Of a DNA stretch of 64,000 nt, positions 16,562-37,055 are shown in pieces (positions within the stretch are counted from its first letter, which is position 1; every line of letters begins with the position of its first letter). Location: positions 4,160,001 to 4,224,000 of the forward strand of contig OZ223209.1 in NCBI GenBank assembly GCA_965140415.1, in the 5' to 3' direction. The DNA is from Myxococcota bacterium. GTDB lineage: Bacteria > Myxococcota_A > SURF-8. The notes under the pieces are model-generated. The model saw only the letters and a program-made list of their open reading frames with translations, searched no databases and was not told the DNA's origin. A program made the translations under genes and the position numbers.

Positions 16562-16627
16562 TTCCAAATACGGCAGATAATTGCCTGTCAAATACGGCAT
16601 GATCGTGCTATGGTGCCAAATACGGCA
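16562..16627. promoter_or_regulatory. Three putative enhancer (UAS) sites
   Basis: CAAATACGGCA exact at 16565, 16589 and 16617; the third is TGCC-N6-GGCA. Confidence 0.7.
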
Positions 16628-16657
16628 CCAATTCAATTCTGGAAAAGGCAGGCCACG

Positions 16658-18757
16658 ATGATCAATGAAAACGACTTCTTCCGGCAGGCGACACTGAAGA
16701 TTTGCGGAAACCTGGCAATCGAACAAGCGCTCCATGAGGCTTTGCTCTACATTGGCCGATATATCCCAATAGACGTCTTTTTCTTGGAATACTTCGATCC
16801 TGAATCAAACTCCGCCCGAACCATCGCGAGAGCCGACGGTAACGGCGGTGTTCCACTTGATCTGGTCACCCCAATTCCAGCCGATGCACGTGAGCATCGT
16901 GACTTTAAAGCAACGGCTGTGCTTGGCAAAGCCATGATTCTTAATCACTGTGAAGAGAATCACATGGCGACGACGATGCTTCGTTTTCATAACTATGATG
17001 AAAAAAGCACCTCTTTAATCACCATGCAATTGATAGGTGAAGGTGAGGTATTCGGTGGCTTGGTGGCTATTGCCGAAAAGCGAGATGCATTCACAGATGA
17101 ACATGCTCAGCTAATTTCATCTCTTTCGAAACCTTTTTCCATTGCCATGGCGAATGCCCTTCACCACCGAGATGTTCTACTAACCAAAGATCGCCTGGTC
17201 GATGAAAACGAGTTTTTCCGTAACATGACCATGCACATCTGCGGAAATCTCGTTCTGGAAGATGGGCTTCATGCATGTATGGAATACCTGACGAACCACA
17301 TTCCCGGATATGCCATCTATCTACAGCAATATGACCCGGGGTTGGGAGCGATGCGTCTCGTGTCCCGCGCCACGATGAACAAGGGGGAGCGGCTGGACCG
17401 GCTGGTGCCGATGTCCGATACGGCAAAGGCAGCCATGACACGGATTTGGGAGGGCTACCTTGCCGGAAACATGCCGCCCGTGTTCGTGGTCAACGATCCG
17501 AAACAGCAACCGGTGACCATGAGCATGCTGGAAGCGCTGGACCTGCCGCTGTCCTCAGCCTTGAGCCTGCCGCTGCTTGTCAACGATCAGCCAGTAGGGG
17601 CTTTGGTGCTGCTGGCCGAGGGCGAGAACCGGTTCAGTGAGGAACATATCCGGCTCTATAGCACTCTCAAAGTTCCGTTTTTCATCGCCATGTCCAATAC
17701 GCTTAAACATATGGAAGTACTGAAGCTAAAAGATATGCTGGCGGATGATAACCGCTTCTTACAACGCGAAATACACAGGATGACCGGTGATGATATCATC
17801 GGAAGTGACTTTGGTTTGAAGCATGTTATGGACATGGTACGACAGGTTGCTCCTTTGGATAGTCCGGTTCTTCTTATGGGAGAAACAGGTGTCGGCAAAG
17901 ACGTAATCGCTAATGCGATCCATTTCTCTTCACCCCGCAATGACAAACCCTTTATCGCGGTTAACAGTGGAGCCATACCGGATTCATTGCTGGACAGCGA
18001 GCTATTCGGTCATGAAAAAGGAGCATTCACCGGAGCACTCAAACAGAAGCGTGGCCGTTTCGAACGTGCAGATAAGGGAACGATCTTTCTAGATGAAATC
18101 GGCGAGCTACCGCCCCAGGCGCAGATACGGCTGCTTCGAGTGGTGCAAAACCGGGAAATTGAACGCGTGGGTGGGACGGATACGATTCCCATAGATGTCC
18201 GTATCATCGCAGCCACCCACAGAAGCCTGGAGGATATGGTCGCCGCTGGTCAGTTTCGTGAAGATCTTTGGTTCAGGCTAAACGTATTTCCGATAACCAT
18301 CCCACCGTTACGCGAGCGCACAGAAGATATTCCCGCGCTGGTCCACCACTTCATCGAAAGCAAATCGAACCAGCTCAGGCTTCCACCTGGAATGAAGTGT
18401 GCATCAGGTGAAATGAATCGCCTGATGGCCTACCACTGGCCGGGAAACGTGCGAGAACTGGAAAATGTTGTCGAGCGAGCATTGATTTTGCACCCACAAG
18501 GACCATTATCATTCAATCTGCAAACAGAACAGAAGAGAGAATCTGAAGTTCCGAAAAAGGTGTCCATTACAACTGATGCATATTCTGGTTTGACGAAATT
18601 GGACGATGTTATTTCGCATCACATCAAGCATATCTTGGGAAACACCAATGGTAAGGTCCAAGGGAAAGATGGCGCAGCCGCATTGCTTGGCGTGAATCCG
18701 AGTACACTTCGAAATAAAATGAAGAAACTTGGGATACCGTATGGTATAAATCAGTAG
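16658..18757 (+). CDS. sigma54-dependent transcriptional activator with two GAF-like domains (FhlA-like)
   Basis: GETGVGKD, ELFGHEKGAFTGA, FLDEIGE, WPGNVRELEN and a Fis-type HTH; duplicated N-terminal ENxFFR...ICGNL unit. Confidence 0.95.
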   Translation: MINENDFFRQATLKICGNLAIEQALHEALLYIGRYIPIDVFFLEYFDPESNSARTIARADGNGGVPLDLVTPIPADAREHRDFKATAVLGKAMILNHCEENHMATTMLRFHNYDEKSTSLITMQLIGEGEVFGGLVAIAEKRDAFTDEHAQLISSLSKPFSIAMANALHHRDVLLTKDRLVDENEFFRNMTMHICGNLVLEDGLHACMEYLTNHIPGYAIYLQQYDPGLGAMRLVSRATMNKGERLDRLVPMSDTAKAAMTRIWEGYLAGNMPPVFVVNDPKQQPVTMSMLEALDLPLSSALSLPLLVNDQPVGALVLLAEGENRFSEEHIRLYSTLKVPFFIAMSNTLKHMEVLKLKDMLADDNRFLQREIHRMTGDDIIGSDFGLKHVMDMVRQVAPLDSPVLLMGETGVGKDVIANAIHFSSPRNDKPFIAVNSGAIPDSLLDSELFGHEKGAFTGALKQKRGRFERADKGTIFLDEIGELPPQAQIRLLRVVQNREIERVGGTDTIPIDVRIIAATHRSLEDMVAAGQFREDLWFRLNVFPITIPPLRERTEDIPALVHHFIESKSNQLRLPPGMKCASGEMNRLMAYHWPGNVRELENVVERALILHPQGPLSFNLQTEQKRESEVPKKVSITTDAYSGLTKLDDVISHHIKHILGNTNGKVQGKDGAAALLGVNPSTLRNKMKKLGIPYGINQ

Positions 18758-20034: not shown

Positions 20035-20712
20035 ATGTCTGAGAAAACGACTGAAGTTAAAGATAGCCACCTCCAACCCACACCAATCATCGACAGTGGA
20101 CATGAAAGAGTGCGTGCTTTTGCACTTGAACATGCCGGCAAATCCAACGATAAGGTTGAACAGGCCGTTGGGTTGTATTATGCGGTTCGCGATCTGATCC
20201 GCTACAATCCTTACACCTTTTCCCTAACCGTCGAAACGCTCAAGGCCTCCAGTAGTCTTACTACAGGCGAAGCATGGTGTGTGCCCAAGGCAGCCTTGCT
20301 TGCCGCCTGTTGCCGCGCAATGGGTATCCCGTCTCGTGTGGGATTCGCAGATGTCCGCAATCATCTGTCTACCAAACGTATGCGTGAAATGATGAAAACC
20401 GACGTGTTTCACTGGCACGGCTACACCCTGCTGTATCTTGAAGGCAAATGGGTGAAAGCGACTCCGGCATTCAACCGGGAACTGTGTGAACGATTCAACT
20501 TCAAGACGCTGGACTTCGATGGCACGCACGACTCTTTGTACCATCCTTTCGATCTTGATGGAAAGAAGCATATGGAGTATCTACACTTCAGGGGCGAGTA
20601 TGACGACGTGCCAATAGACGAAATGAAAGCGAGTATACAAGAGCTATACGGTAGCGAAACATTCGACGCAGACAACGCAGATTTTGACAAAGAAACGGAA
20701 AGGCTGGACTGA
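20035..20712 (+). CDS. Transglutaminase-like protein
   Basis: WCVPKAALLAACCRAMGIPSR; WHGY; WVKATP. Confidence 0.9.
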   Translation: MSEKTTEVKDSHLQPTPIIDSGHERVRAFALEHAGKSNDKVEQAVGLYYAVRDLIRYNPYTFSLTVETLKASSSLTTGEAWCVPKAALLAACCRAMGIPSRVGFADVRNHLSTKRMREMMKTDVFHWHGYTLLYLEGKWVKATPAFNRELCERFNFKTLDFDGTHDSLYHPFDLDGKKHMEYLHFRGEYDDVPIDEMKASIQELYGSETFDADNADFDKETERLD

Positions 20713-21359
20713 TGACTCATCGGACGCTTTGGTACTTTACGGATTGTGTGTGCGCCTGGTGCTACAGCATGGCACCGAACATGGAACGCTTAATGGATGA
20801 ATTCGGAGATCGGATCAAGCTGCGCCTGGTTAGTTATGGTCTGTGTCCGGCAGAGCGGGCGATCGTTTTGAGACCGGAAAGTCGGGAGGGGTTTAAAAAG
20901 GAACTGAATCGCATCGAGACCCGCACCGGTGTGGCTTTCGGCCAAGCTTTTCGTAACTTGATCGAACAGGACGGTCTGGTTTTCGATAGTCATCCCGCCT
21001 CTAAAGCCTTGGCTCTATTGCGCCGTACTCAGTCCGATGACACACTCTCTTTTCTCCATGCTATCCAGCGTTCCGTATATGAGGACGGCCATCTTCCCGG
21101 TGATGAAGCCATGTTGAAAGAGCATTTGCTTCGCTTCGGTATCACTGAAGAAGTTTTCAAACGGGATTGGAATTCTGAAGAATTAGAAGACGACACCTAT
21201 GATGATTATGACCTGACCATGGAACGAGATATCAACATTGTTCCCAGCCTTTTAGTTCCCGATGAACCGAACGCACCGCGTTTCTGTTCGGGATTCATTC
21301 GCTATGATCTGCTCAAACAGCGGGTATCGGATTGGCTGGACCGACAAGCAATCGTGTAG
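20712..21359 (+). CDS. DsbA/FrnE-family thioredoxin-fold protein
   Basis: YFTDCVCAWCY (CxxC); INIVPSL. Confidence 0.8.
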   Translation: MTHRTLWYFTDCVCAWCYSMAPNMERLMDEFGDRIKLRLVSYGLCPAERAIVLRPESREGFKKELNRIETRTGVAFGQAFRNLIEQDGLVFDSHPASKALALLRRTQSDDTLSFLHAIQRSVYEDGHLPGDEAMLKEHLLRFGITEEVFKRDWNSEELEDDTYDDYDLTMERDINIVPSLLVPDEPNAPRFCSGFIRYDLLKQRVSDWLDRQAIV

Positions 21360-21364
21360 CTTTA

Positions 21365-21670
21365 TCATTCCATCCAGAGGAAACGTTTCAGGTTTATCCG
21401 ATCGTTCTCATCGAAATGAACGCCCTCGCTCTGTAAAAGAGCTTTCTGTTCCTCATAACCTCTGGACCTGGGTAGGCTGATTGCACCCTTGGCATTGATG
21501 ACCCGTTGCCAGGGAAGATTATACTTGCGACTCATGGAATGGATGATTCGGGTCACCTGTCTGGCACCGTTGGGGTGTCCGGCCATGATTGCGATGGTTC
21601 CATATGTACAGACCTTCCCCTCTGGGATGCTTCTCATTATTTCGATCACTCTCCTGGTAAAGTCATTCAT
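21365..21670 (-). CDS. Alkyltransferase-like (MGMT/ATL) protein
   Basis: IPEGKVCTYG...ARQV...LPWQRVINAKG; W replaces the catalytic Cys. Confidence 0.9.
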   Translation of the reverse strand: MNDFTRRVIEIMRSIPEGKVCTYGTIAIMAGHPNGARQVTRIIHSMSRKYNLPWQRVINAKGAISLPRSRGYEEQKALLQSEGVHFDENDRINLKRFLWME

Positions 21671-21858
21671 GATATTCTTGTATGGTCCGTACCTGAATCC
21701 CAGTTTCTTCAACTGAAAACGCTGGATACCGGGAGTTATTCTCAGCAGTTCCATAACTACTCCGAAAAGAACGTCAGTATCCGGTTGAAGTTCATACCAC
21801 ACCTGTCAATAAGCACCAACACGTAAAAAACAATCTGAGAAGTCCATTCCGATTATAC

Positions 21859-21887
21859 TTGACTATTTGGCAAACTATCAAAACAAT
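21859..21887 (+). promoter_or_regulatory. Putative sigma70 promoter with an overlapping ArsR-type operator
   Basis: TTGACT-N17-AACAAT containing TTTG-N9-CAAA. Confidence 0.45.
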
Positions 21888-21893
21888 GTCTCC

Positions 21894-22205
21894 ATGACAT
21901 GTTGCACGACGAAAAAAACGAAGGAAGACTTCAAACGTCAGGCGAGAATCCACAAGGCACTGGCCAATGAGGCACGGCTGCTCATCGTAGACCGCTTGAA
22001 AAACTGCGAGTGTTCGGTGAGTGAGTTGGCATCAGCAGTGGAACTGGACATATCCACCGTGTCCAACCATCTTTCCGTACTTCTCTCCGCCGGGATTGTG
22101 GACAATCGCAAAGCAGGCACCACGGTCTATTACCGTCTGCTAACACCTTGTGTGCTTGACATGTTCGCATGCACCGAAAAGGTGTTGAAAAACCGCGACG
22201 GATAG
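21894..22205 (+). CDS. ArsR/SmtB family transcriptional regulator
   Basis: KALANEARLLIV...SVSELA...STVSNHLSVL..AGIV...G..VYYRL; Cys at both ends. Confidence 0.9.
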   Translation: MTCCTTKKTKEDFKRQARIHKALANEARLLIVDRLKNCECSVSELASAVELDISTVSNHLSVLLSAGIVDNRKAGTTVYYRLLTPCVLDMFACTEKVLKNRDG

Positions 22206-22229
22206 ATTTTCCCTATTGGAGAACACTCT

Positions 22230-22355
22230 ATGACCGAACAATCAACTGTATTACATACAATCATTCAAGCCGGACACGGCAAAGCTAAAACAATGGGTCT
22301 TCACTTGGATGAATTGACTATACTATTGAAAACCTTACTGGATTACGAGTTATAA
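22230..22355 (+). CDS. Possible 41-aa ORF or gene remnant
   Basis: GGAG then ATG in an AT-rich spacer; no motif recognised. Confidence 0.2.
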   Translation: MTEQSTVLHTIIQAGHGKAKTMGLHLDELTILLKTLLDYEL

Positions 22356-22398
22356 GCTTTTCTTCATTCTCTTTATGAGTAAGTTGTAGGGGTATCTA

Positions 22399-23607
22399 AT
22401 GTCCGAAAACCATTCATGGAAAGGTTGGGCGCTCTTCGGCGTCCTGTTTCTCGTCGCCACGCTGTCGGCGGCGCTCGTTACGAAACTATTGGTTCTGACC
22501 GCACTGCCGGTAGGCTTTCTGTTCGGGTTCTTTTTGCAAAAAGGCGACCTCTGCGGCTCAAGCGCCTTCAGCGAAGTGTTATTGATGAAGTCCTGGTCCA
22601 AGGTCTTCGGCATCTGGACGGTGATCGTCGTCTCAATGCTGGGCTTCGCTTTGCTGCATGGCTTCGATCTCATTACACTTACCATCAAACCGATGTGGTG
22701 GCTGAATTACCTGATCGGCGGCGCAGTCTTCGGTGTTGGTATGGTGCTGGCTGGAGGCTGCGTGTCGGGCTGCCTGTATAAAGCTGGGACAGGCAATCTC
22801 AACTCCATCGTGGCGTTGATCGGTATTCCGTTGGGCGTCTCGCTTGTGGAGTACGGACCTTTGAAGGGACTCTACAACGGCATGAAATCCGTGACGACGA
22901 CCGCACCGGATGGTGGCCCGCTGAGTCTTTTCGCGCTGCTCGGTGTTCCTTACTGGACGCTGGCGATCTTTTTCGCTGTGGCAACGATTATTGCTCTGGT
23001 TTTCTGGAAGAGAAAGTCTAGCAAAACCAACCCCCAACCCAAAACAGTAAAAGGATTCAAAGACTGGTTGATGCACCCATGGAAACCCTGGCAGGCGGGG
23101 GTGGCCATCGGATTGCTTGCCATGGCGGCCTATATGTCCTCCGCTGCCAGCGGACGAAACTATCCCCTCGGCGTCACCCACGGCGTGCTGTTCACTCAGG
23201 TGCTGATTACCGACTCCAGCATCCAGCACGTTTACGAGAAACCCGATCCCAAACCGGTGGTTTCAGATGCAAAACCGTTAGCCCCAAAACCAGAGAAAAA
23301 GGTTGTCTGGTGGCTGGTGTTGCTGGTCGGCGCTCTTGTGCTCGGCTCACACACCTCGGCGAGACTGTCAGGGCAAGCAAAGCTTCTTCCTAAACCACCT
23401 GATCAGGTACTGATCGCCCTGCTTGGCGGCTTCCTTGTCGGCACAGGTGCCGCGCTGGCCAAAGGATGCGTGGTCGGCAATATCATGAGCGGCTGGGCAC
23501 TGATGAGCCTTGGCACGGTATTTTTCGGTGTGGTGGCGATTCTGGCCAACTGGGCGACGACATATGTCTATCTGATGGGCGGGAACCCATTCTCCGGTAG
23601 GAAATGA
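22399..23607 (+). CDS. YeeE/YedE family sulfur-compound (thiosulfate) transporter
   Basis: Multi-TM; GFLFGFFLQKGDLC, GMVLAGGCVSG, GAALAKGCVVG (three conserved Cys). Confidence 0.88.
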   Translation: MSENHSWKGWALFGVLFLVATLSAALVTKLLVLTALPVGFLFGFFLQKGDLCGSSAFSEVLLMKSWSKVFGIWTVIVVSMLGFALLHGFDLITLTIKPMWWLNYLIGGAVFGVGMVLAGGCVSGCLYKAGTGNLNSIVALIGIPLGVSLVEYGPLKGLYNGMKSVTTTAPDGGPLSLFALLGVPYWTLAIFFAVATIIALVFWKRKSSKTNPQPKTVKGFKDWLMHPWKPWQAGVAIGLLAMAAYMSSAASGRNYPLGVTHGVLFTQVLITDSSIQHVYEKPDPKPVVSDAKPLAPKPEKKVVWWLVLLVGALVLGSHTSARLSGQAKLLPKPPDQVLIALLGGFLVGTGAALAKGCVVGNIMSGWALMSLGTVFFGVVAILANWATTYVYLMGGNPFSGRK

Positions 23608-23699: not shown

Positions 23700-25103
23700 C
23701 TAGGGTTCCTCTTCTTCCTGTTCACCGCAGAGGCAGGGGTCATCGGACTCGTTTACATCGCAACCGCCGCTTGTGTAAGAAGGATCAACAGCGGTGCAGA
23801 TGTCATCGCAGGATTGCATGGTCCAGTATCCGTAGTAGTAATCCTCACCTTCGCAGACAGACAGCATCCCGTTTTCCTCACAGTACATCTCGCCGGGGAA
23901 GCACTCCGGCATGACGCCGTCCATTGCACCATATTCACAGTTGCACAGTTCCGTTCCGCCTTCGTAACAACCCAGTGAATAGTAGTCGTAGCCATAGTTT
24001 TCATAACACCAATCATTGCAACTCATCGACTGGTAATAGCCCGGCTCGCCCTGGTGATCGGCTGGATCTGAATCGTCGTAGGGAGTGCAGCGGTTCAGGT
24101 TGTAATCATCCGCACACTGATCCTCGCCCACGAAACACTCAATGGGCTCGCCTTCGATTATGCCATATTCACACTGGCAGGGATTCTGCGTATCTTCCGC
24201 ATCGCAACCATAGGAGACATAATCCGCACCAAATTCCTCTACGCAGTAATCTTCGCAAAGGTACATTGTGAACCATTCACTGGGATTCTCACAGACGAAC
24301 AACTTCGATCCGTCCTCGCAATACATTTCCCCCGAAGTACAATAGGCAAGATCTCCGTCGGGAATGTCTTCGCCATCTCCATCCACATCTCCATCGATAT
24401 CACCATCCGGCAACTGACAGTCGCACAGATTACCGCTCTGATCTTCATCGCAGATCGAACTTGGCTGGTACTCTTCCCCGAACTGGCTTTCGCAATATTC
24501 CTCACAGGTCTTGTACTGGAACATGCTGGTATCGTCGCACACCTGCACGGTCTCGTTATCCAGGCAATACACCTCCCCCGGTGTACATTCCACCATGACA
24601 CCTAGCAACATGTCGTACTCGCATTCGCAGCCACTGGGATCGTCCGACGAGCACTGGATGCTGAAGATTTCCTCGTCCGGCGGTCGATGCTCCGCGCAGT
24701 AATCGTTGCAGTTAACCGTAACGATTTCCCCATCGCGGCATAAAGTCGCCTCGAAGTTTTCGCTACAGGCCAAAAGCTGATCCGCGCCACAGGAACTGTC
24801 GCCATCGATTTCGTAATCCACATCCCCCACCGGCACTCCGGCCAGGGCGTTGTCGCTGTCCGTTTCCACCGCATCCTGATCCCCTTGCCCGATAATGATG
24901 GTGTCTGAGTCCGAGCACGATGGGCTTCCCAGCGCCAGTCCTGCCGCCAGTAGCAACGTTACCGCCGCACGTGCGACTTTTTGCGGGAAGAACCAGGAAA
25001 GCCACAGCGCCCGCGCAGTTAGACTCTGAGCGCTTTCACTGCCGTACCGGGCCTGCCGATACCGTTTGATGGGCTGCACCTTAAAGGGGGATTTCTTGTT
25101 CAT
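23700..25103 (-). CDS. Cys-rich repeat lipoprotein with an extended N-terminal leader; probable radical SAM substrate
   Basis: Leader FKVQPIKRYRQARY; late hydrophobic segment ending LGSPSC; five 8-Cys repeats; 29 nt downstream of the rSAM gene. Confidence 0.8.
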   Translation of the reverse strand: MNKKSPFKVQPIKRYRQARYGSESAQSLTARALWLSWFFPQKVARAAVTLLLAAGLALGSPSCSDSDTIIIGQGDQDAVETDSDNALAGVPVGDVDYEIDGDSSCGADQLLACSENFEATLCRDGEIVTVNCNDYCAEHRPPDEEIFSIQCSSDDPSGCECEYDMLLGVMVECTPGEVYCLDNETVQVCDDTSMFQYKTCEEYCESQFGEEYQPSSICDEDQSGNLCDCQLPDGDIDGDVDGDGEDIPDGDLAYCTSGEMYCEDGSKLFVCENPSEWFTMYLCEDYCVEEFGADYVSYGCDAEDTQNPCQCEYGIIEGEPIECFVGEDQCADDYNLNRCTPYDDSDPADHQGEPGYYQSMSCNDWCYENYGYDYYSLGCYEGGTELCNCEYGAMDGVMPECFPGEMYCEENGMLSVCEGEDYYYGYWTMQSCDDICTAVDPSYTSGGCDVNESDDPCLCGEQEEEEP

Positions 25104-25132
25104 AATGACACCTTTATTTTATTCGTCGGTTT

Positions 25133-26254
25133 TCAATCGTAACCGTATTCCAACTGGTCCTGCTGATAACGATATTGTTTTTTCAGAAAATGCCGGTCCT
25201 TTTCCGCCCATAGAATGTTGCCGATTTCATCCGAAATGGGAATCAGCATGCGTTCGTGTTCGCATAGAATCGGGGCTACCTGGGTCAGTTCACCGGTAAG
25301 CTGCCAGTTCATACAACCGCAGTAGTTGGCACAACGTCCCTGCATGGCACAACCCTCACACTGGGGCCGGGGTTGCTTGTTGCGTTGAATCAACATCTGC
25401 CAGCGCTCGTTCAAGCCGGTGTCGGCGTGCCCGATCTGATACTCCTGCGCGTCGGGTCGGTCGCTGACGAACTGCACGCAGGGGAAAATACGACCATCCG
25501 GTGCCATGGAAATCTTCCGCTTACCGAAATCACATATTTCACCCAACTGAATCGGTGAACGGGCATGGCTTTTCAGTTTCTCATCGAACAGGCTCATATA
25601 GAAATATTCGCCGCTGCAGGTAGTCTCGATGTACCACCTGGCCAGCTTCTTGTAACTTTCCCGCAACGCCTCGAATGATTCCAGATCCCAGTCCGGATCG
25701 CTGAAGGCGGGTTGATGCACCATATAGCGAATTCCGCGCGACCACATGTACAGAATCGACTCGTAGAGGCGGTCGGCGGATTTGGGAGTAATGACGCTGG
25801 TAAAAATGCTGCGCGGATTGTAGCGCAGGATCATATCCAGTTTGCTGTCGATCAAATCGAAACTGCCACGCCCATCGGGTAAAATGCGTTGGCCGTCGTG
25901 AGCTTGACGATCACCATCTAACGAGATTGCATACAGGATGTTGTTATCGCGGCAAAACGCCAGACGTTCTTCGTTAAACAGCGTTCCATTGGTGCTTAGC
26001 CTGAAATGCATGGATTTTCCGACTTCACGCCCGCGCTGTAAGGAATACTCTGTCAATCGTTGCAGTAAATCGAACTGTAACAACGGCTCGCCACCGAAAT
26101 AGGAAACACAGGCGGAATTCTGACCGAGTTTCACTGCCAGATCGATCCCTTTTCGAGCGGTCTGCTCACTCATGTCTTCCTGAACTTTGCCGGGTGCATA
26201 GCAATAGGTACAGCGCAAGTTGCAGTTTTTCGTGAGATGTAAAATAATCTTCAT
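25133..26254 (-). CDS. Radical SAM/SPASM domain protein
   Basis: CNLRCTYC, FGGEPLL, ISLDG; SPASM C...DGRIFPC...CEGC.....C...CGC..........C. Confidence 0.95.
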   Translation of the reverse strand: MKIILHLTKNCNLRCTYCYAPGKVQEDMSEQTARKGIDLAVKLGQNSACVSYFGGEPLLQFDLLQRLTEYSLQRGREVGKSMHFRLSTNGTLFNEERLAFCRDNNILYAISLDGDRQAHDGQRILPDGRGSFDLIDSKLDMILRYNPRSIFTSVITPKSADRLYESILYMWSRGIRYMVHQPAFSDPDWDLESFEALRESYKKLARWYIETTCSGEYFYMSLFDEKLKSHARSPIQLGEICDFGKRKISMAPDGRIFPCVQFVSDRPDAQEYQIGHADTGLNERWQMLIQRNKQPRPQCEGCAMQGRCANYCGCMNWQLTGELTQVAPILCEHERMLIPISDEIGNILWAEKDRHFLKKQYRYQQDQLEYGYD

Positions 26255-26297
26255 AAACTCGGCACCCTTTCGAATCTCAGTGGCGGACAACTTGAAA

Positions 26298-26313
26298 AGC
26301 AAGTTTCAGGCCA
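26298..26313 (-). promoter_or_regulatory. sigma54 (-24/-12) promoter of the rSAM operon
   Basis: Minus strand TGGCCTGAAACTTGCT, ending 43 nt upstream of ATG 26254. Confidence 0.75.
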
Positions 26314-35411: not shown

Positions 35412-37055
35412 ATGAAACGGAATCGTTTACTTATTATGTTATTGGCGTTTGGAGTTGCTCTAGGAATATCTGCCTGCGATTCAGACAGCGACCCGGTCGT
35501 CGATGGCGACACGGATACAACGATCGATGGCGACCAGGATGCCGATCTGGACACCGAACTTTCGGAATTGGAAGGCGAAATAGAAGCGGAAAGCGAACAA
35601 GGAATCCCGGAAGCACTGCCTTTTACTCTGACGCGGGAGGATGTCGGCGAAGCGCTGACCGAGGCGGAAATCACCGCTTTCACGAAGAAAATCACCGGCT
35701 TTATGAAAAACGTCGACTACTTCGGCTGGATTCTGTGGACCAGCCATGGCATGGATAAATCCTACGATGAAAACATGCCGGACTATAAACTCTACTGGCA
35801 GGATACCCGCGCTACCAAAGCCGGTGACACTGTCACCTTTTCCCATACCGGTGGCGCAGACAACCTGATGATCCGTACCTCCAAGATTCTGAACCAGGCG
35901 ATTGCCGGTTATTTCATGAGTGGCGACGAGCGTTTCGCACGCATCATCGAACAATATAGTAAAGGCATGGTAGCGCTGTTCCAGGGCATGATGTTCGGCG
36001 GCGATGACAACGTCACCAGTGTAATGGCGCGTGCCATTTTCACGCTCAATCACTCCTATGAAGAAGAAGGCCGCAAGGTCGTCGTGGATTACGATCCGGT
36101 CAAGCAGGAAGAAAAATACGACTGGAATGCCCACACCATTCCCAATGTCAATAATCCATACTGGGGTGAGATCTGGGTGCGCAACATGCGCTCGAAAGAT
36201 GATGTGCCGCACATGTTCCGCACGATGCCATTATTGAAACGAGTTGCAGCATATGCTAAAGATGACTACGTTAGGGAAGCGGCGCAAAACGCCTACGACC
36301 ACATGGTGGCTTTCGCAAAAGATATCGTGGATACCGGGTATTATATCCGCACCAAGGAAAAAGACGGTGTGGCTTACATTCCGCACGAAGAGGATATGCC
36401 CGGCGTTGTTAAGGATCTGGCCAGTTTCGTGAATTTCGAAGAATTCATTCCCAATGCGGAATGCAATTCCAAACTCAATGCGGCTCTATTGGCATACGGC
36501 GAGCCACTGGAAAACGACTGCGAGCAGGGGTTCGGCGGCAACTACGAAGGCATCGCCACGGCGGGTCATTATTTCAATTTTGCCATTATCCGCTATTTCC
36601 ATCTGGCGGCGATCACCAATTCATTGATGGCGCACGAAAACGCCATGGCGCAGAAATTGCTGGAAGGCTTGGTCGTCCGCGCGGATGAAATGGTTCACGA
36701 CGATTACCGACGTGGCGAAATCAAGGAATGGGACGCCGACGGCGCACCGTGGCTATTGGCTGCCGCCGCAAGTGGCCTTCCACTGACTAGTGAAGAAGCA
36801 CGCCTGATCATCCAACAGTATTCCGACTCCGTTGATTTCTTCGAAGCCTGGCCGAACTGGGACTTGTGGGACGAATCGGTTCCGGATGGTGTGGTAGACT
36901 ATGCCCCAAGTCGCAGCACCGCCGAGCGTGACTACATCCGCCCGGAGGAAATGGCTTACATCATGGAATACTGTTTCTCCCCCTTCCGCAATCCTGCCGG
37001 TGTAAAGCTGGTCGACTGCGATATCGTGGGCGACAGTTCCCGCTGGGGTGAGTAA
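35412..37055 (+). CDS. Lipoprotein of unknown function
   Basis: ISAC lipobox; DGD linker; ~490-aa globular region with consistent codon bias. Confidence 0.85.
   Translation: MKRNRLLIMLLAFGVALGISACDSDSDPVVDGDTDTTIDGDQDADLDTELSELEGEIEAESEQGIPEALPFTLTREDVGEALTEAEITAFTKKITGFMKNVDYFGWILWTSHGMDKSYDENMPDYKLYWQDTRATKAGDTVTFSHTGGADNLMIRTSKILNQAIAGYFMSGDERFARIIEQYSKGMVALFQGMMFGGDDNVTSVMARAIFTLNHSYEEEGRKVVVDYDPVKQEEKYDWNAHTIPNVNNPYWGEIWVRNMRSKDDVPHMFRTMPLLKRVAAYAKDDYVREAAQNAYDHMVAFAKDIVDTGYYIRTKEKDGVAYIPHEEDMPGVVKDLASFVNFEEFIPNAECNSKLNAALLAYGEPLENDCEQGFGGNYEGIATAGHYFNFAIIRYFHLAAITNSLMAHENAMAQKLLEGLVVRADEMVHDDYRRGEIKEWDADGAPWLLAAAASGLPLTSEEARLIIQQYSDSVDFFEAWPNWDLWDESVPDGVVDYAPSRSTAERDYIRPEEMAYIMEYCFSPFRNPAGVKLVDCDIVGDSSRWGE

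Follow-up and report, generated by a model that had tools for sequence, protein, structure and literature searches.

A radical SAM/SPASM enzyme and an N-terminal tag placed ahead of signal peptides form a conserved pair that may modify proteins before export

The stretch analysed here, 64,000 nt of contig OZ223209.1 of a Myxococcota bacterium (positions 4,160,001 to 4,224,000; assembly GCA_965140415.1) and called the window throughout, carries on its minus strand a two-gene unit composed, in this order, of a sigma54-type promoter element, a gene for a radical S-adenosylmethionine (SAM)/SPASM enzyme, a gene for an acidic, Cys-rich pre-lipoprotein (the partner) and a terminator-like hairpin (Table 1). 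The partner starts with a basic, Tyr-containing segment of 45 residues that precedes its signal peptide, hereafter the tag, which holds FKVQPIKRYRQARY at residues 7-20 and whose core motif, residues 7-22, is encoded at 25038-25085, with the codon of Tyr20 at 25044-25046. A first-pass annotation of the same DNA had proposed a sigma54-driven operon encoding an enzyme devoid of an N-terminal recognition domain and a leader-bearing lipoprotein of five Cys-rich repeats, modified at its linkers or Cys residues. Its description of the locus held, from the promoter element and the 29-nt gap between the genes to the leader ahead of the hydrophobic residues 46-62 and Cys63, and the target sites that it put forward fared less well, as described below. 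Comparison of this locus with its counterparts in other genomes indicates that the conserved unit consists of the enzyme and the tag.

We searched 41 related genomes with the enzyme sequence and obtained strong matches (E 2.1e-82 or better) in seven genomes besides the source genome, which itself encodes a second copy, 54% identical to the first. In all nine strong-match loci, the second copy included, a tag-bearing open reading frame (ORF) lies directly downstream of the enzyme gene, and a signal peptide and a Cys come after the tag. The leader-bearing neighbours that had been expected of enzyme homologs are thus present, in these nine loci and also in loci from other phyla. From the side of the tag, the source genome gave two matches among 45,945 ORFs (E 5e-32 and 5.5e-28; next best 0.0055), each beside one of the two enzyme paralogs. 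Over the 41 genomes, 15 tag ORFs were found in eight genomes, which are exactly the eight in which the enzyme search gave a strong match, with neither present in the remaining 33, and 11 of the 15 adjoin an enzyme gene. Two further weak matches to the tag profile in this set span the hydrophobic part only.

The proteins that carry the tag differ between loci. Partners with Cys-rich modules are present at six orthologous loci, one of which has two in tandem, and the partners of the paralog (200 aa, 1% Cys) and of genome G007 (230 aa, 0.4% Cys) consist of acidic repeats and lack the modules. The paralogous pair (G000:C1:3710154-3711953; locus L013, 4155-5954) displays the same tag without Cys modules and with no sigma54-like element seen upstream; LspA and one Lgt copy are encoded ~9-10 kb upstream of it (3699603-3701027). 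At another locus (L019, G009:C33:17300-18405), the enzyme ortholog is spread over two reading frames that overlap (matching query residues 1-244 and 236-369), through either a frameshift or faulty assembly, next to an intact tag-bearing partner. Tag genes also occur as tandem pairs at L016, L021, L025, L026 and L029.

We then extended the comparison with an enzyme-relative scan, one genome per species, in which the best 80 of 491 confirmed relatives were kept. The tag profile identified the motif beside the enzyme in 7 of these 80 loci (L021-L026 and L028), from a Deltaproteobacteria-labelled metagenome-assembled genome, Krumholzibacteriia and Saprospiraceae. Shorter x-P-x-Y-P forms ahead of a Sec, lipoprotein or twin-arginine translocation (Tat)-like signal were recognised by eye at L027, L029, L030, L033, L036, L038, L039 and L044, the inspection covering, within the 51-row enzyme clade defined below, 24 of its 33 unlabelled loci. 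In L027, L030 and L033, the short tag (x-P-x-Y-P-T) abuts a twin-arginine-like R-R-x-F-L signal, and some tagged partners may therefore, by their sequence, use Tat instead of Sec. A sister branch of the enzyme clade, from Planctomycetota and Verrucomicrobiota (L059-L061, L064, L081 and L082), has a different cassette, also unnamed, in which the gene of a small membrane protein with a G-A-T-R-S-x-K-L-like sequence at its end precedes a signal-peptidase-I-like gene (S-M-x-P-T-L).

Metagenome contigs were sampled with a degenerate DNA pattern that represents a single variant of the tag and covers only the P-V-K-R-Y-x-x-[AP]-K-Y-P subset, and 13 loci were obtained, seven of them with true tag genes. 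The other six are spurious, five being near-identical 63-aa ORFs and one an out-of-frame match. Among the seven true tag genes, five adjoin an enzyme gene and two lie on contigs of 2,220 and 1,537 bases, the ends of which are too near to tell. The 2,220-base contig (L110) carries three tag genes of the Cys-poor class in tandem.

A tag profile built from 25 tags was searched against 1.84 billion cluster representatives and matched 147 of them at E up to 0.001, including 54 at E up to 1e-10, with the match at the very start of the protein in 146 of the 147 (the exception being P0137). Aligned on the Tyr, the consensus reads [LF]-x-V-x-P-[VL]-[RK]-[RK]-Y-x-x-[PA]-[RK]-Y-P-S, with Gly as the alternative to Pro after the Tyr. 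The Tyr is present in 100% of the 147 representatives, Pro at +1 in 88%, Ser at +2 in 78% and Pro or Ala at -2 in 98%; Gly follows the Tyr in 7%, and the Y-G-S of the window partner is a minority form. Tyr20 is also the sole invariant column in an alignment of 25 partners. When the 133 tag-bearing representatives of at least 150 aa are sorted by Cys content, 20 have at least 5% Cys, 93 have less and 20 have none, and a lipobox-like Cys is found in 68 of the 133. Tagged proteins come from Myxococcota-like organisms, Bacteroidota, Planctomycetota, Verrucomicrobiota, Krumholzibacteriota and others, and the public-record names of ten of them are either 'hypothetical protein' or absent.

The enzyme matches the Pfam Radical_SAM model (5.8e-15; 56.3 bits for a cut-off of 29.5), and its motif for the SAM-binding 4Fe-4S cluster, at residues 11-18, leaves no space for an N-terminal RiPP recognition element (RRE; RiPP, ribosomally synthesised and post-translationally modified peptide), in keeping with the first reading of the gene. 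The C-terminal part holds the SPASM signature string CANYCGCMNWQLTG and the full cysteine set predicted for two auxiliary clusters, CX9-15GX4C...CX2CX5CX3C...C, as C241...G254xxxxC259, C299xxC302xxxxxC308xxxC312 and C331, with C314 as an extra Cys, all of them invariant; the Pfam SPASM model alone scores under its cut-off (13.6 against 21.5 bits). NCBIfam returned 74 matches, the best 25 of which were looked at. The top one is the PapB family NF047865 (213 bits for a cut-off of 340, over model positions 5-329 of 330), followed by nif11-type, CcpM, CXXX-repeat, SCIFF and QhpD families, other maturases of the thioether type, and all the closest families act on peptides or proteins. By sequence profile, the closest solved structure is CteB (5wgg, E 1.1e-53), with the sulfatase-maturing enzyme anSME second (E 1.3e-27).

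These scores place the enzyme beside, and not within, the named families. Nine related tag-linked enzymes from other genomes reach 198-249 bits on the PapB model, whereas a true PapB-family enzyme from Paenibacillus (L072), taken as a control, reaches 429.7 bits. In a tree of 86 rows (LG+G4, quick search, support by SH-like approximate likelihood ratio test (SH-aLRT) only), all 18 tag-linked enzymes fall within a single clade of 51 rows (SH-aLRT 95), and L072 and the Firmicutes enzymes fall in the other clade, of 35 rows; the tree leaves aside L019, whose gene is split, L074 and L095, with their short matches, and L001-L012, which duplicate L013-L020. A sulfatase maturase is rejected, TIGR03942 scoring 96 bits for a cut-off of 349.45 and the partner being devoid of a C/S-x-P/A-x-R motif. 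PapB-family membership is likewise set aside on the score given above, the missing N-terminal leader-binding domain and a partner that is no short CX3D peptide, as is the CrpC-type family TIGR04463 (63.6 bits for a cut-off of 525, with only residues 10-191 covered). As judged from sequence, the enzyme forms an unnamed branch beside the thioether-forming maturases; it groups neither with the sulfatase maturases nor with a characterised maturase, either of which would have spoken against the first-pass proposal.

The partner contains 41 Cys, 105 Asp plus Glu and 33 Tyr in 467 aa. The 41 Cys are Cys63 and five sets of eight, arranged C..C..C..CxxxC..C..CxC as first described, and the Gly-centred linkers also read as given then (ALAGVPV, MLLGVMV, IPDGDLA, IIEGEPI and AMDGVMP, with CxCEY[DG] immediately ahead of three of them). 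Pfam and NCBIfam gave no family for this protein or for any other partner tested. Five relatives are 30-69% identical to it, and the top ESM Atlas scores, 0.80-0.81, all to a 'hypothetical protein', are too weak for use. Against the lipobox pattern [LVI][ASTVI][GAS]C, the window partner reads S-P-S-C; a Cys comes immediately after the hydrophobic stretch in 22 of the 25 aligned partners, many with canonical boxes (V-S-A-C, V-A-A-C), and both LspA and Lgt are encoded in the genome.

For the 8-Cys module, we aligned 35 of the 38 modules of eight orthologous partners, picked for exactly eight Cys, the other three holding nine. All eight Cys are kept in every one of these 35 modules, and no Asp or Glu is invariant. 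AlphaFold2 run on this alignment returned a confident small beta/alpha domain (mean pLDDT, the score predicted for the local distance difference test, of 80.7), with low values, 51 and 54, for the flanking linker residues. Foldseek found no match of the model in the PDB at E up to 0.001 (best E 1.8), the weak pacifastin-like matches spanning only ~30 residues. The even number of invariant Cys, taken with the predicted fold, fits four disulfides per module. Within the genome, the tag-bearing protein alone has modules of this type. As to function, binding of cations or minerals by an acidic, Tyr-rich surface protein is a guess.

Table 1. Features of the two-gene unit, in window coordinates
Feature	Position	Strand	Basis or remark
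Sigma54-type -24/-12 element TGGCCTGAAACTTGCT	26298..26313	-	GG-N10-GC spacing
Radical SAM/SPASM enzyme gene, 373 aa from ATG at 26254	25133..26254	-	Pfam, NCBIfam, solved-structure profile match, ortholog alignment
CX3CX2C radical SAM cluster motif, CNLRCTYC, residues 11-18	26201..26224	-	Invariant in 8/8 aligned enzymes
SPASM region, invariant C241, C259, C299, C302, C308, C312, C314, C331	25262..25534	-	Ortholog alignment
29-nt intergenic gap, AAAGGTG before partner ATG	25104..25132	-	Read from sequence
Partner gene, 467-aa acidic Cys-rich pre-lipoprotein	23700..25103	-	Sequence reading
N-terminal tag, residues 1-45, 5' of signal peptide	24969..25103	-	Conserved across phyla
Signal-peptide hydrophobic core (residues 46-62) and lipobox-like Cys63	24915..24968	-	S-P-S-C, non-canonical lipobox
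Acidic spacer, residues 64-103	24795..24914	-	Sequence; similar spacers in many ordinary lipoproteins of the genome
8-Cys module 1, residues 104-161	24621..24794	-	Left out of module alignment: extracted stretch also held Cys63 (nine Cys)
8-Cys module 2, residues 173-229	24417..24587	-	Sequence and module alignment
8-Cys module 3, residues 255-311	24171..24341	-	Sequence and module alignment; AlphaFold2 mean pLDDT 80.7
8-Cys module 4, residues 323-389	23937..24137	-	Sequence and module alignment
8-Cys module 5, residues 401-459, then tail GEQEEEEP	23727..23903	-	Sequence and module alignment
Four Gly-centred inter-module linkers, span 23904..24620	24588-24620, 24342-24416, 24138-24170, 23904-23936	-	Sequence
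Terminator-like hairpin, 11 pairs, T tail, begins 17 nt past partner stop codon	23654..23683	-	Downstream of partner gene

The promoter element conforms to the sigma54 pattern TGGCAC-N5-TTGCW (GG and GC 10 nt apart), and a TGG-N9-TGC is found 58-82 nt 5' of the enzyme start in six of the nine loci examined, namely the window and five orthologous loci, with none at the paralog locus, G007 or G009. Note that TGGC-N7-TTGCW has six matches in the window for 1.58 expected, so that a lone promoter match is weak evidence by itself; the other five exact matches lie at 23102, 31924, 36646, 42114 and 61952. The genome encodes one rpoN match (223.6 bits) and 32 sigma54-activator domain matches. One of the latter (PF00158, 234 bits; G000:C1:4177795-4178295) belongs to a 715-aa ORF at 16610-18757 on the plus strand of the window, 7.5 kb from the operon, which could be its activator or be unrelated. 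The enzyme ORF is also open from an in-frame TTG at 26302, which would add 16 aa and overlap the promoter element; all enzyme orthologs share as their start the ATG at 26254 (MKIILHL...). The enzyme stop codon occupies 25133-25135, and the partner ATG is at 25103.

Genes flanking the unit are unrelated to it and are not conserved between loci: their products are an FAH hydrolase and a TPR protein, together with DsbA-like, MGMT-like and ArsR proteins and a sulphur transporter. The stretch immediately downstream of the operon (20712-23607) codes, on the opposite strand, for a DsbA-like protein with a thioredoxin fold, a DNA-binding protein of the MGMT type, the regulator ArsR and a YeeE/YedE-type sulphur transporter. 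A further, undetected gene of the unit is rejected, since the neighbours are unrelated and not conserved across loci. Rfam has no match within the window, and no amine dehydrogenase gene lies near the operon. The two-gene unit contains no gene for a protease, a transporter or an RRE protein, so that removal of the tag would fall to signal peptidase II.

From the co-occurrence of enzyme and tag, we infer that the tag docks on the enzyme. In the pathway that we propose, the RRE-less enzyme, a member of a family of cytoplasmic, oxygen-sensitive proteins, would recognise the N-terminal tag of the presumably co-transcribed pre-lipoprotein, the tag remaining cytoplasmic as it lies 5' of the signal peptide. 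A radical (5'-deoxyadenosyl) modification of the pre-protein would precede its export by Sec, and signal peptidase II would then cleave at Cys63, the tag being lost with the signal peptide. The role of the partner as substrate and of the tag as recognition element, the order of events and the lipidation are likewise read from the sequences. Recognition of the tag by the enzyme in the cytoplasm, with modification of the pre-protein ahead of export, is in our view rather probable. A prediction of the complex from the enzyme alignment and tag residues 1-45 gave a score of 0.02, which speaks neither for nor against docking.

Several observations weigh against this pathway. Some neighbours of the enzyme in the Fibrobacter branch are Lys-rich lipoproteins without the Tyr. 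Four of the 15 tag ORFs lie away from any enzyme gene, as Cys-rich module proteins in genomes that hold the enzyme. The mature domains of tag-bearing proteins are mutually unrelated (Cys-rich modules, Cys-free acidic repeats and larger Cys-poor domains), and no common modifiable site was found in their exported parts. The S-P-S-C lipobox of the partner is non-canonical. Finally, a change confined to the tag would be lost with the signal peptide, to no known purpose.

Two places for the reaction have to be weighed within the proposed pathway. A reaction at or beside the invariant Tyr motif of the tag is quite possible, if somewhat short of an even chance, with the invariance of the Tyr, the RRE-less enzyme and the variability of all that lies downstream as points in its favour. 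We give the same standing, again a little under even, to a reaction in the mature chain, to which RiPP logic, the kinship to thioether-forming maturases and the discarding of the tag with the signal peptide point; in this Cys-rich partner it would, by analogy, most plausibly form thioethers from Cys to Asp/Glu, of the kind made by PapB, CteB and CrpC. Some other arrangement, or the lack of a direct substrate relation, is unlikely.

In its strongest form, the first option makes the tag itself the substrate: the enzyme would bind [PA][RK]-Y-[PG]-S in its active site and alter the Tyr or cross-link it, for instance to a conserved Arg or Lys, and the modified tag would gate export or sorting, or be the product itself. 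RRE-less anSME binds its sulfatase motif directly in the active site, and streptococcal radical SAM peptides carry Arg-Tyr and Lys-Trp cross-links. Tyr20 being the only residue invariant in 25 partners and the Tyr being kept in all 147 representatives, the conservation of basic and aromatic residues at fixed spacing, an enzyme without RRE, the variation of all sequence past the signal peptide and a paralogous pair that retains the tag and not the Cys modules all favour such a role. However, a tag that precedes a cleavable signal peptide would carry its change away from the mature protein, and the Tyr is missing in the Fibrobacter-branch neighbours mentioned above. We know of no precedent for a modified signal-peptide extension. 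The nearest enzyme relatives act on cores downstream of leaders (PMC9413430). That the tag is the actual substrate is, in our view, less likely than not. A more specific version, in which modification of the tag Tyr licenses the export of dedicated surface (lipo)proteins and acts as an oxygen-sensitive, SAM- and FeS-dependent checkpoint in several phyla, is decidedly unlikely.

Alternatively, the tag would only dock the enzyme, which would act repeatedly in the exported part by forming Cys-to-Asp/Glu thioethers in the five modules or by modifying the linkers. The best family and structure matches of the enzyme are thioether-forming (PapB, CcpM, CXXX-repeat family, SCIFF/CteB and QhpD), Asp or Glu stands at +4 (C-X3-D/E spacing) of 16 of the 41 partner Cys, the low-confidence linker stretches at the module ends may be accessible, the module is confined to tag-bearing proteins in the genome, and ranthionine formation by CrpC on CrpA offers a precedent (PMC13692751). 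Yet eight invariant Cys with no invariant Asp or Glu suit an arrangement of four disulfides more readily than one of fixed thioethers, the partner of the paralogous enzyme has 1% Cys, and among the 133 tag-bearing proteins as many are Cys-free as are Cys-rich. The Cys as a general target, part of the first-pass proposal, is not sustained by these counts: Cys is not the common target, given the Cys-poor partner of the paralog and the Cys-free family members, and a shared reaction that would form a thioether at the lipobox Cys is rejected since 20 of 133 tag proteins have no Cys. The frequent C-X3-D/E spacing and the CrpC/CrpA precedent make a thioether reaction specific to this clade possible in the present partner, by analogy.

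The linkers, the other target first proposed, fail as specific sites. For density of the Gly-centred motif, the partner ranks only 88th and the partner of the paralog 100th of 7160 ORFs in the genome, and the top ranks are almost all ordinary untagged lipoproteins with acidic spacers of the D-G-D type, which counts against the docking-only scheme as well. Linker-specific modification is thus rejected, the motif being spread genome-wide in such spacers. Lipoproteins that open their mature part with acidic D-G-D-type spacers such as CDSDSDPVVDGDTDT, some in dozens of units, are encoded at 35412-37055 on the plus strand of the window and at many other sites in the genome. In all, we think a tag that merely docks an enzyme acting repeatedly downstream is rather unlikely. 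Tyramine excision by a splicease, which targets a conserved X-Y-G motif, was also considered. The window partner has X-Y-G as R-Y-G at residues 19-21 and as E-Y-G in two linkers; this reaction is rejected given the preponderance of Pro over Gly after the invariant Tyr in the tag family, and no splicease family is among the best 25 of the 74 NCBIfam matches.

At the other extreme, enzyme and partner would have no enzyme-substrate relation, the tag serving to extend the signal peptide for targeting, membrane retention or regulation and the enzyme acting on a small molecule or an unseen peptide, with the lipoprotein accessory to the same pathway. Binding or modification of the partner is deduced from sequence, the mature domains share no common site and four tag genes stand away from the enzyme, all of which would suit such a scheme. 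Against it are the strict joint occurrence of tag and enzyme over genomes and phyla, the single tag-bearing gene beside each enzyme paralog in the source genome, the nearest enzyme families, which all modify peptides or proteins, and a unit with no other conserved gene. We consider it very improbable, and retain the tag-directed modification of the pre-protein before export as the reading that we favour.

Because the pairing recurs across several phyla without a described family, it probably marks an unstudied mode of protein modification before export, as far as the sequences tell. What emerges is an unnamed enzyme clade coupled to a portable N-terminal tag ahead of Sec or lipoprotein signals, Tat-like in some members. 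Should the mature protein prove to be modified, these would be a new class of enzyme-stapled surface proteins; should the tag be modified, signal-peptide extensions would have a new role. With two genes and one invariant Tyr, the system is a simple test bed for substrate finding without an RRE, for the chemistry and for the coordination of modification with export.

Short peptides account for most of what is known of radical SAM/SPASM maturases, and action on a whole protein is documented in few cases: sulfatases, QhpC and CrpA (2026). Maturation of leader-bearing proteins by such enzymes is already known, and what stands out here is the leader placed ahead of a signal peptide. No characterised system matching the pair was found in Pfam, NCBIfam or the literature searched, as the first-pass annotation had suspected, and the literature gave no described match for a radical SAM/SPASM enzyme paired with a lipoprotein, signal-peptide or lipobox partner. 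Compared with CteB, the SCIFF thioether maturase (PDB 5WGG/5WHY), residues 3-336 of the enzyme align to residues 99-440, and CteB residues 1-98, which we take to contain its RRE, have no counterpart; the NCBIfam SCIFF score is 140.7 for a cut-off of 425.

PapB, the maturase of the freyrasin ranthipeptide PapA, belongs to the best-scoring named family and has a radical SAM core and a SPASM domain in common with the present enzyme. PapB is leader-dependent and joins Cys to the Asp beta-carbon in CX3D motifs (PMC9413430). The PapB-family control L072 has 474 aa, ~100 residues before the cluster motif and a gene for a 51-aa Cys/Asp peptide upstream, whereas the enzyme described here lacks the N-terminal domain and its partner is a 467-aa pre-lipoprotein. 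CrpC, a radical SAM/SPASM enzyme of Methanococcus voltae, offers a closer parallel at the protein level: as far as the available text goes, it cross-links the whole Cys-rich repeat protein CrpA, forming ranthionines, and two neighbouring proteins have a common leader-like N-terminus of 47 residues and diverge downstream (PMC13692751, 2026). The same portion of the source reports that removal of the leader lowers and does not abolish processing and mentions no signal peptide after the leader (PMC13692751). CrpC belongs to TIGR04463 and has an RRE; in contrast, our enzyme lies far below that family's cut-off and has no RRE, and its partner does have a signal peptide.

The enzyme scores 138.9 bits on the QhpD model for a cut-off of 453 and aligns from model position 94, QhpD having an extra N-terminal part. 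In the QhpD/QhpC system, a radical SAM/SPASM enzyme joins Cys to Asp/Glu by thioethers in one subunit, made with a leader, of the periplasmic quinohemoprotein amine dehydrogenase. The second-best solved match, anSME (PDB 4K36-4K39), is an RRE-less radical SAM/SPASM enzyme of similar length (370 aa) and acts on secreted proteins prior to their export. The conserved motif described here precedes the signal peptide, whereas that targeted by anSME lies in the mature enzyme domain.

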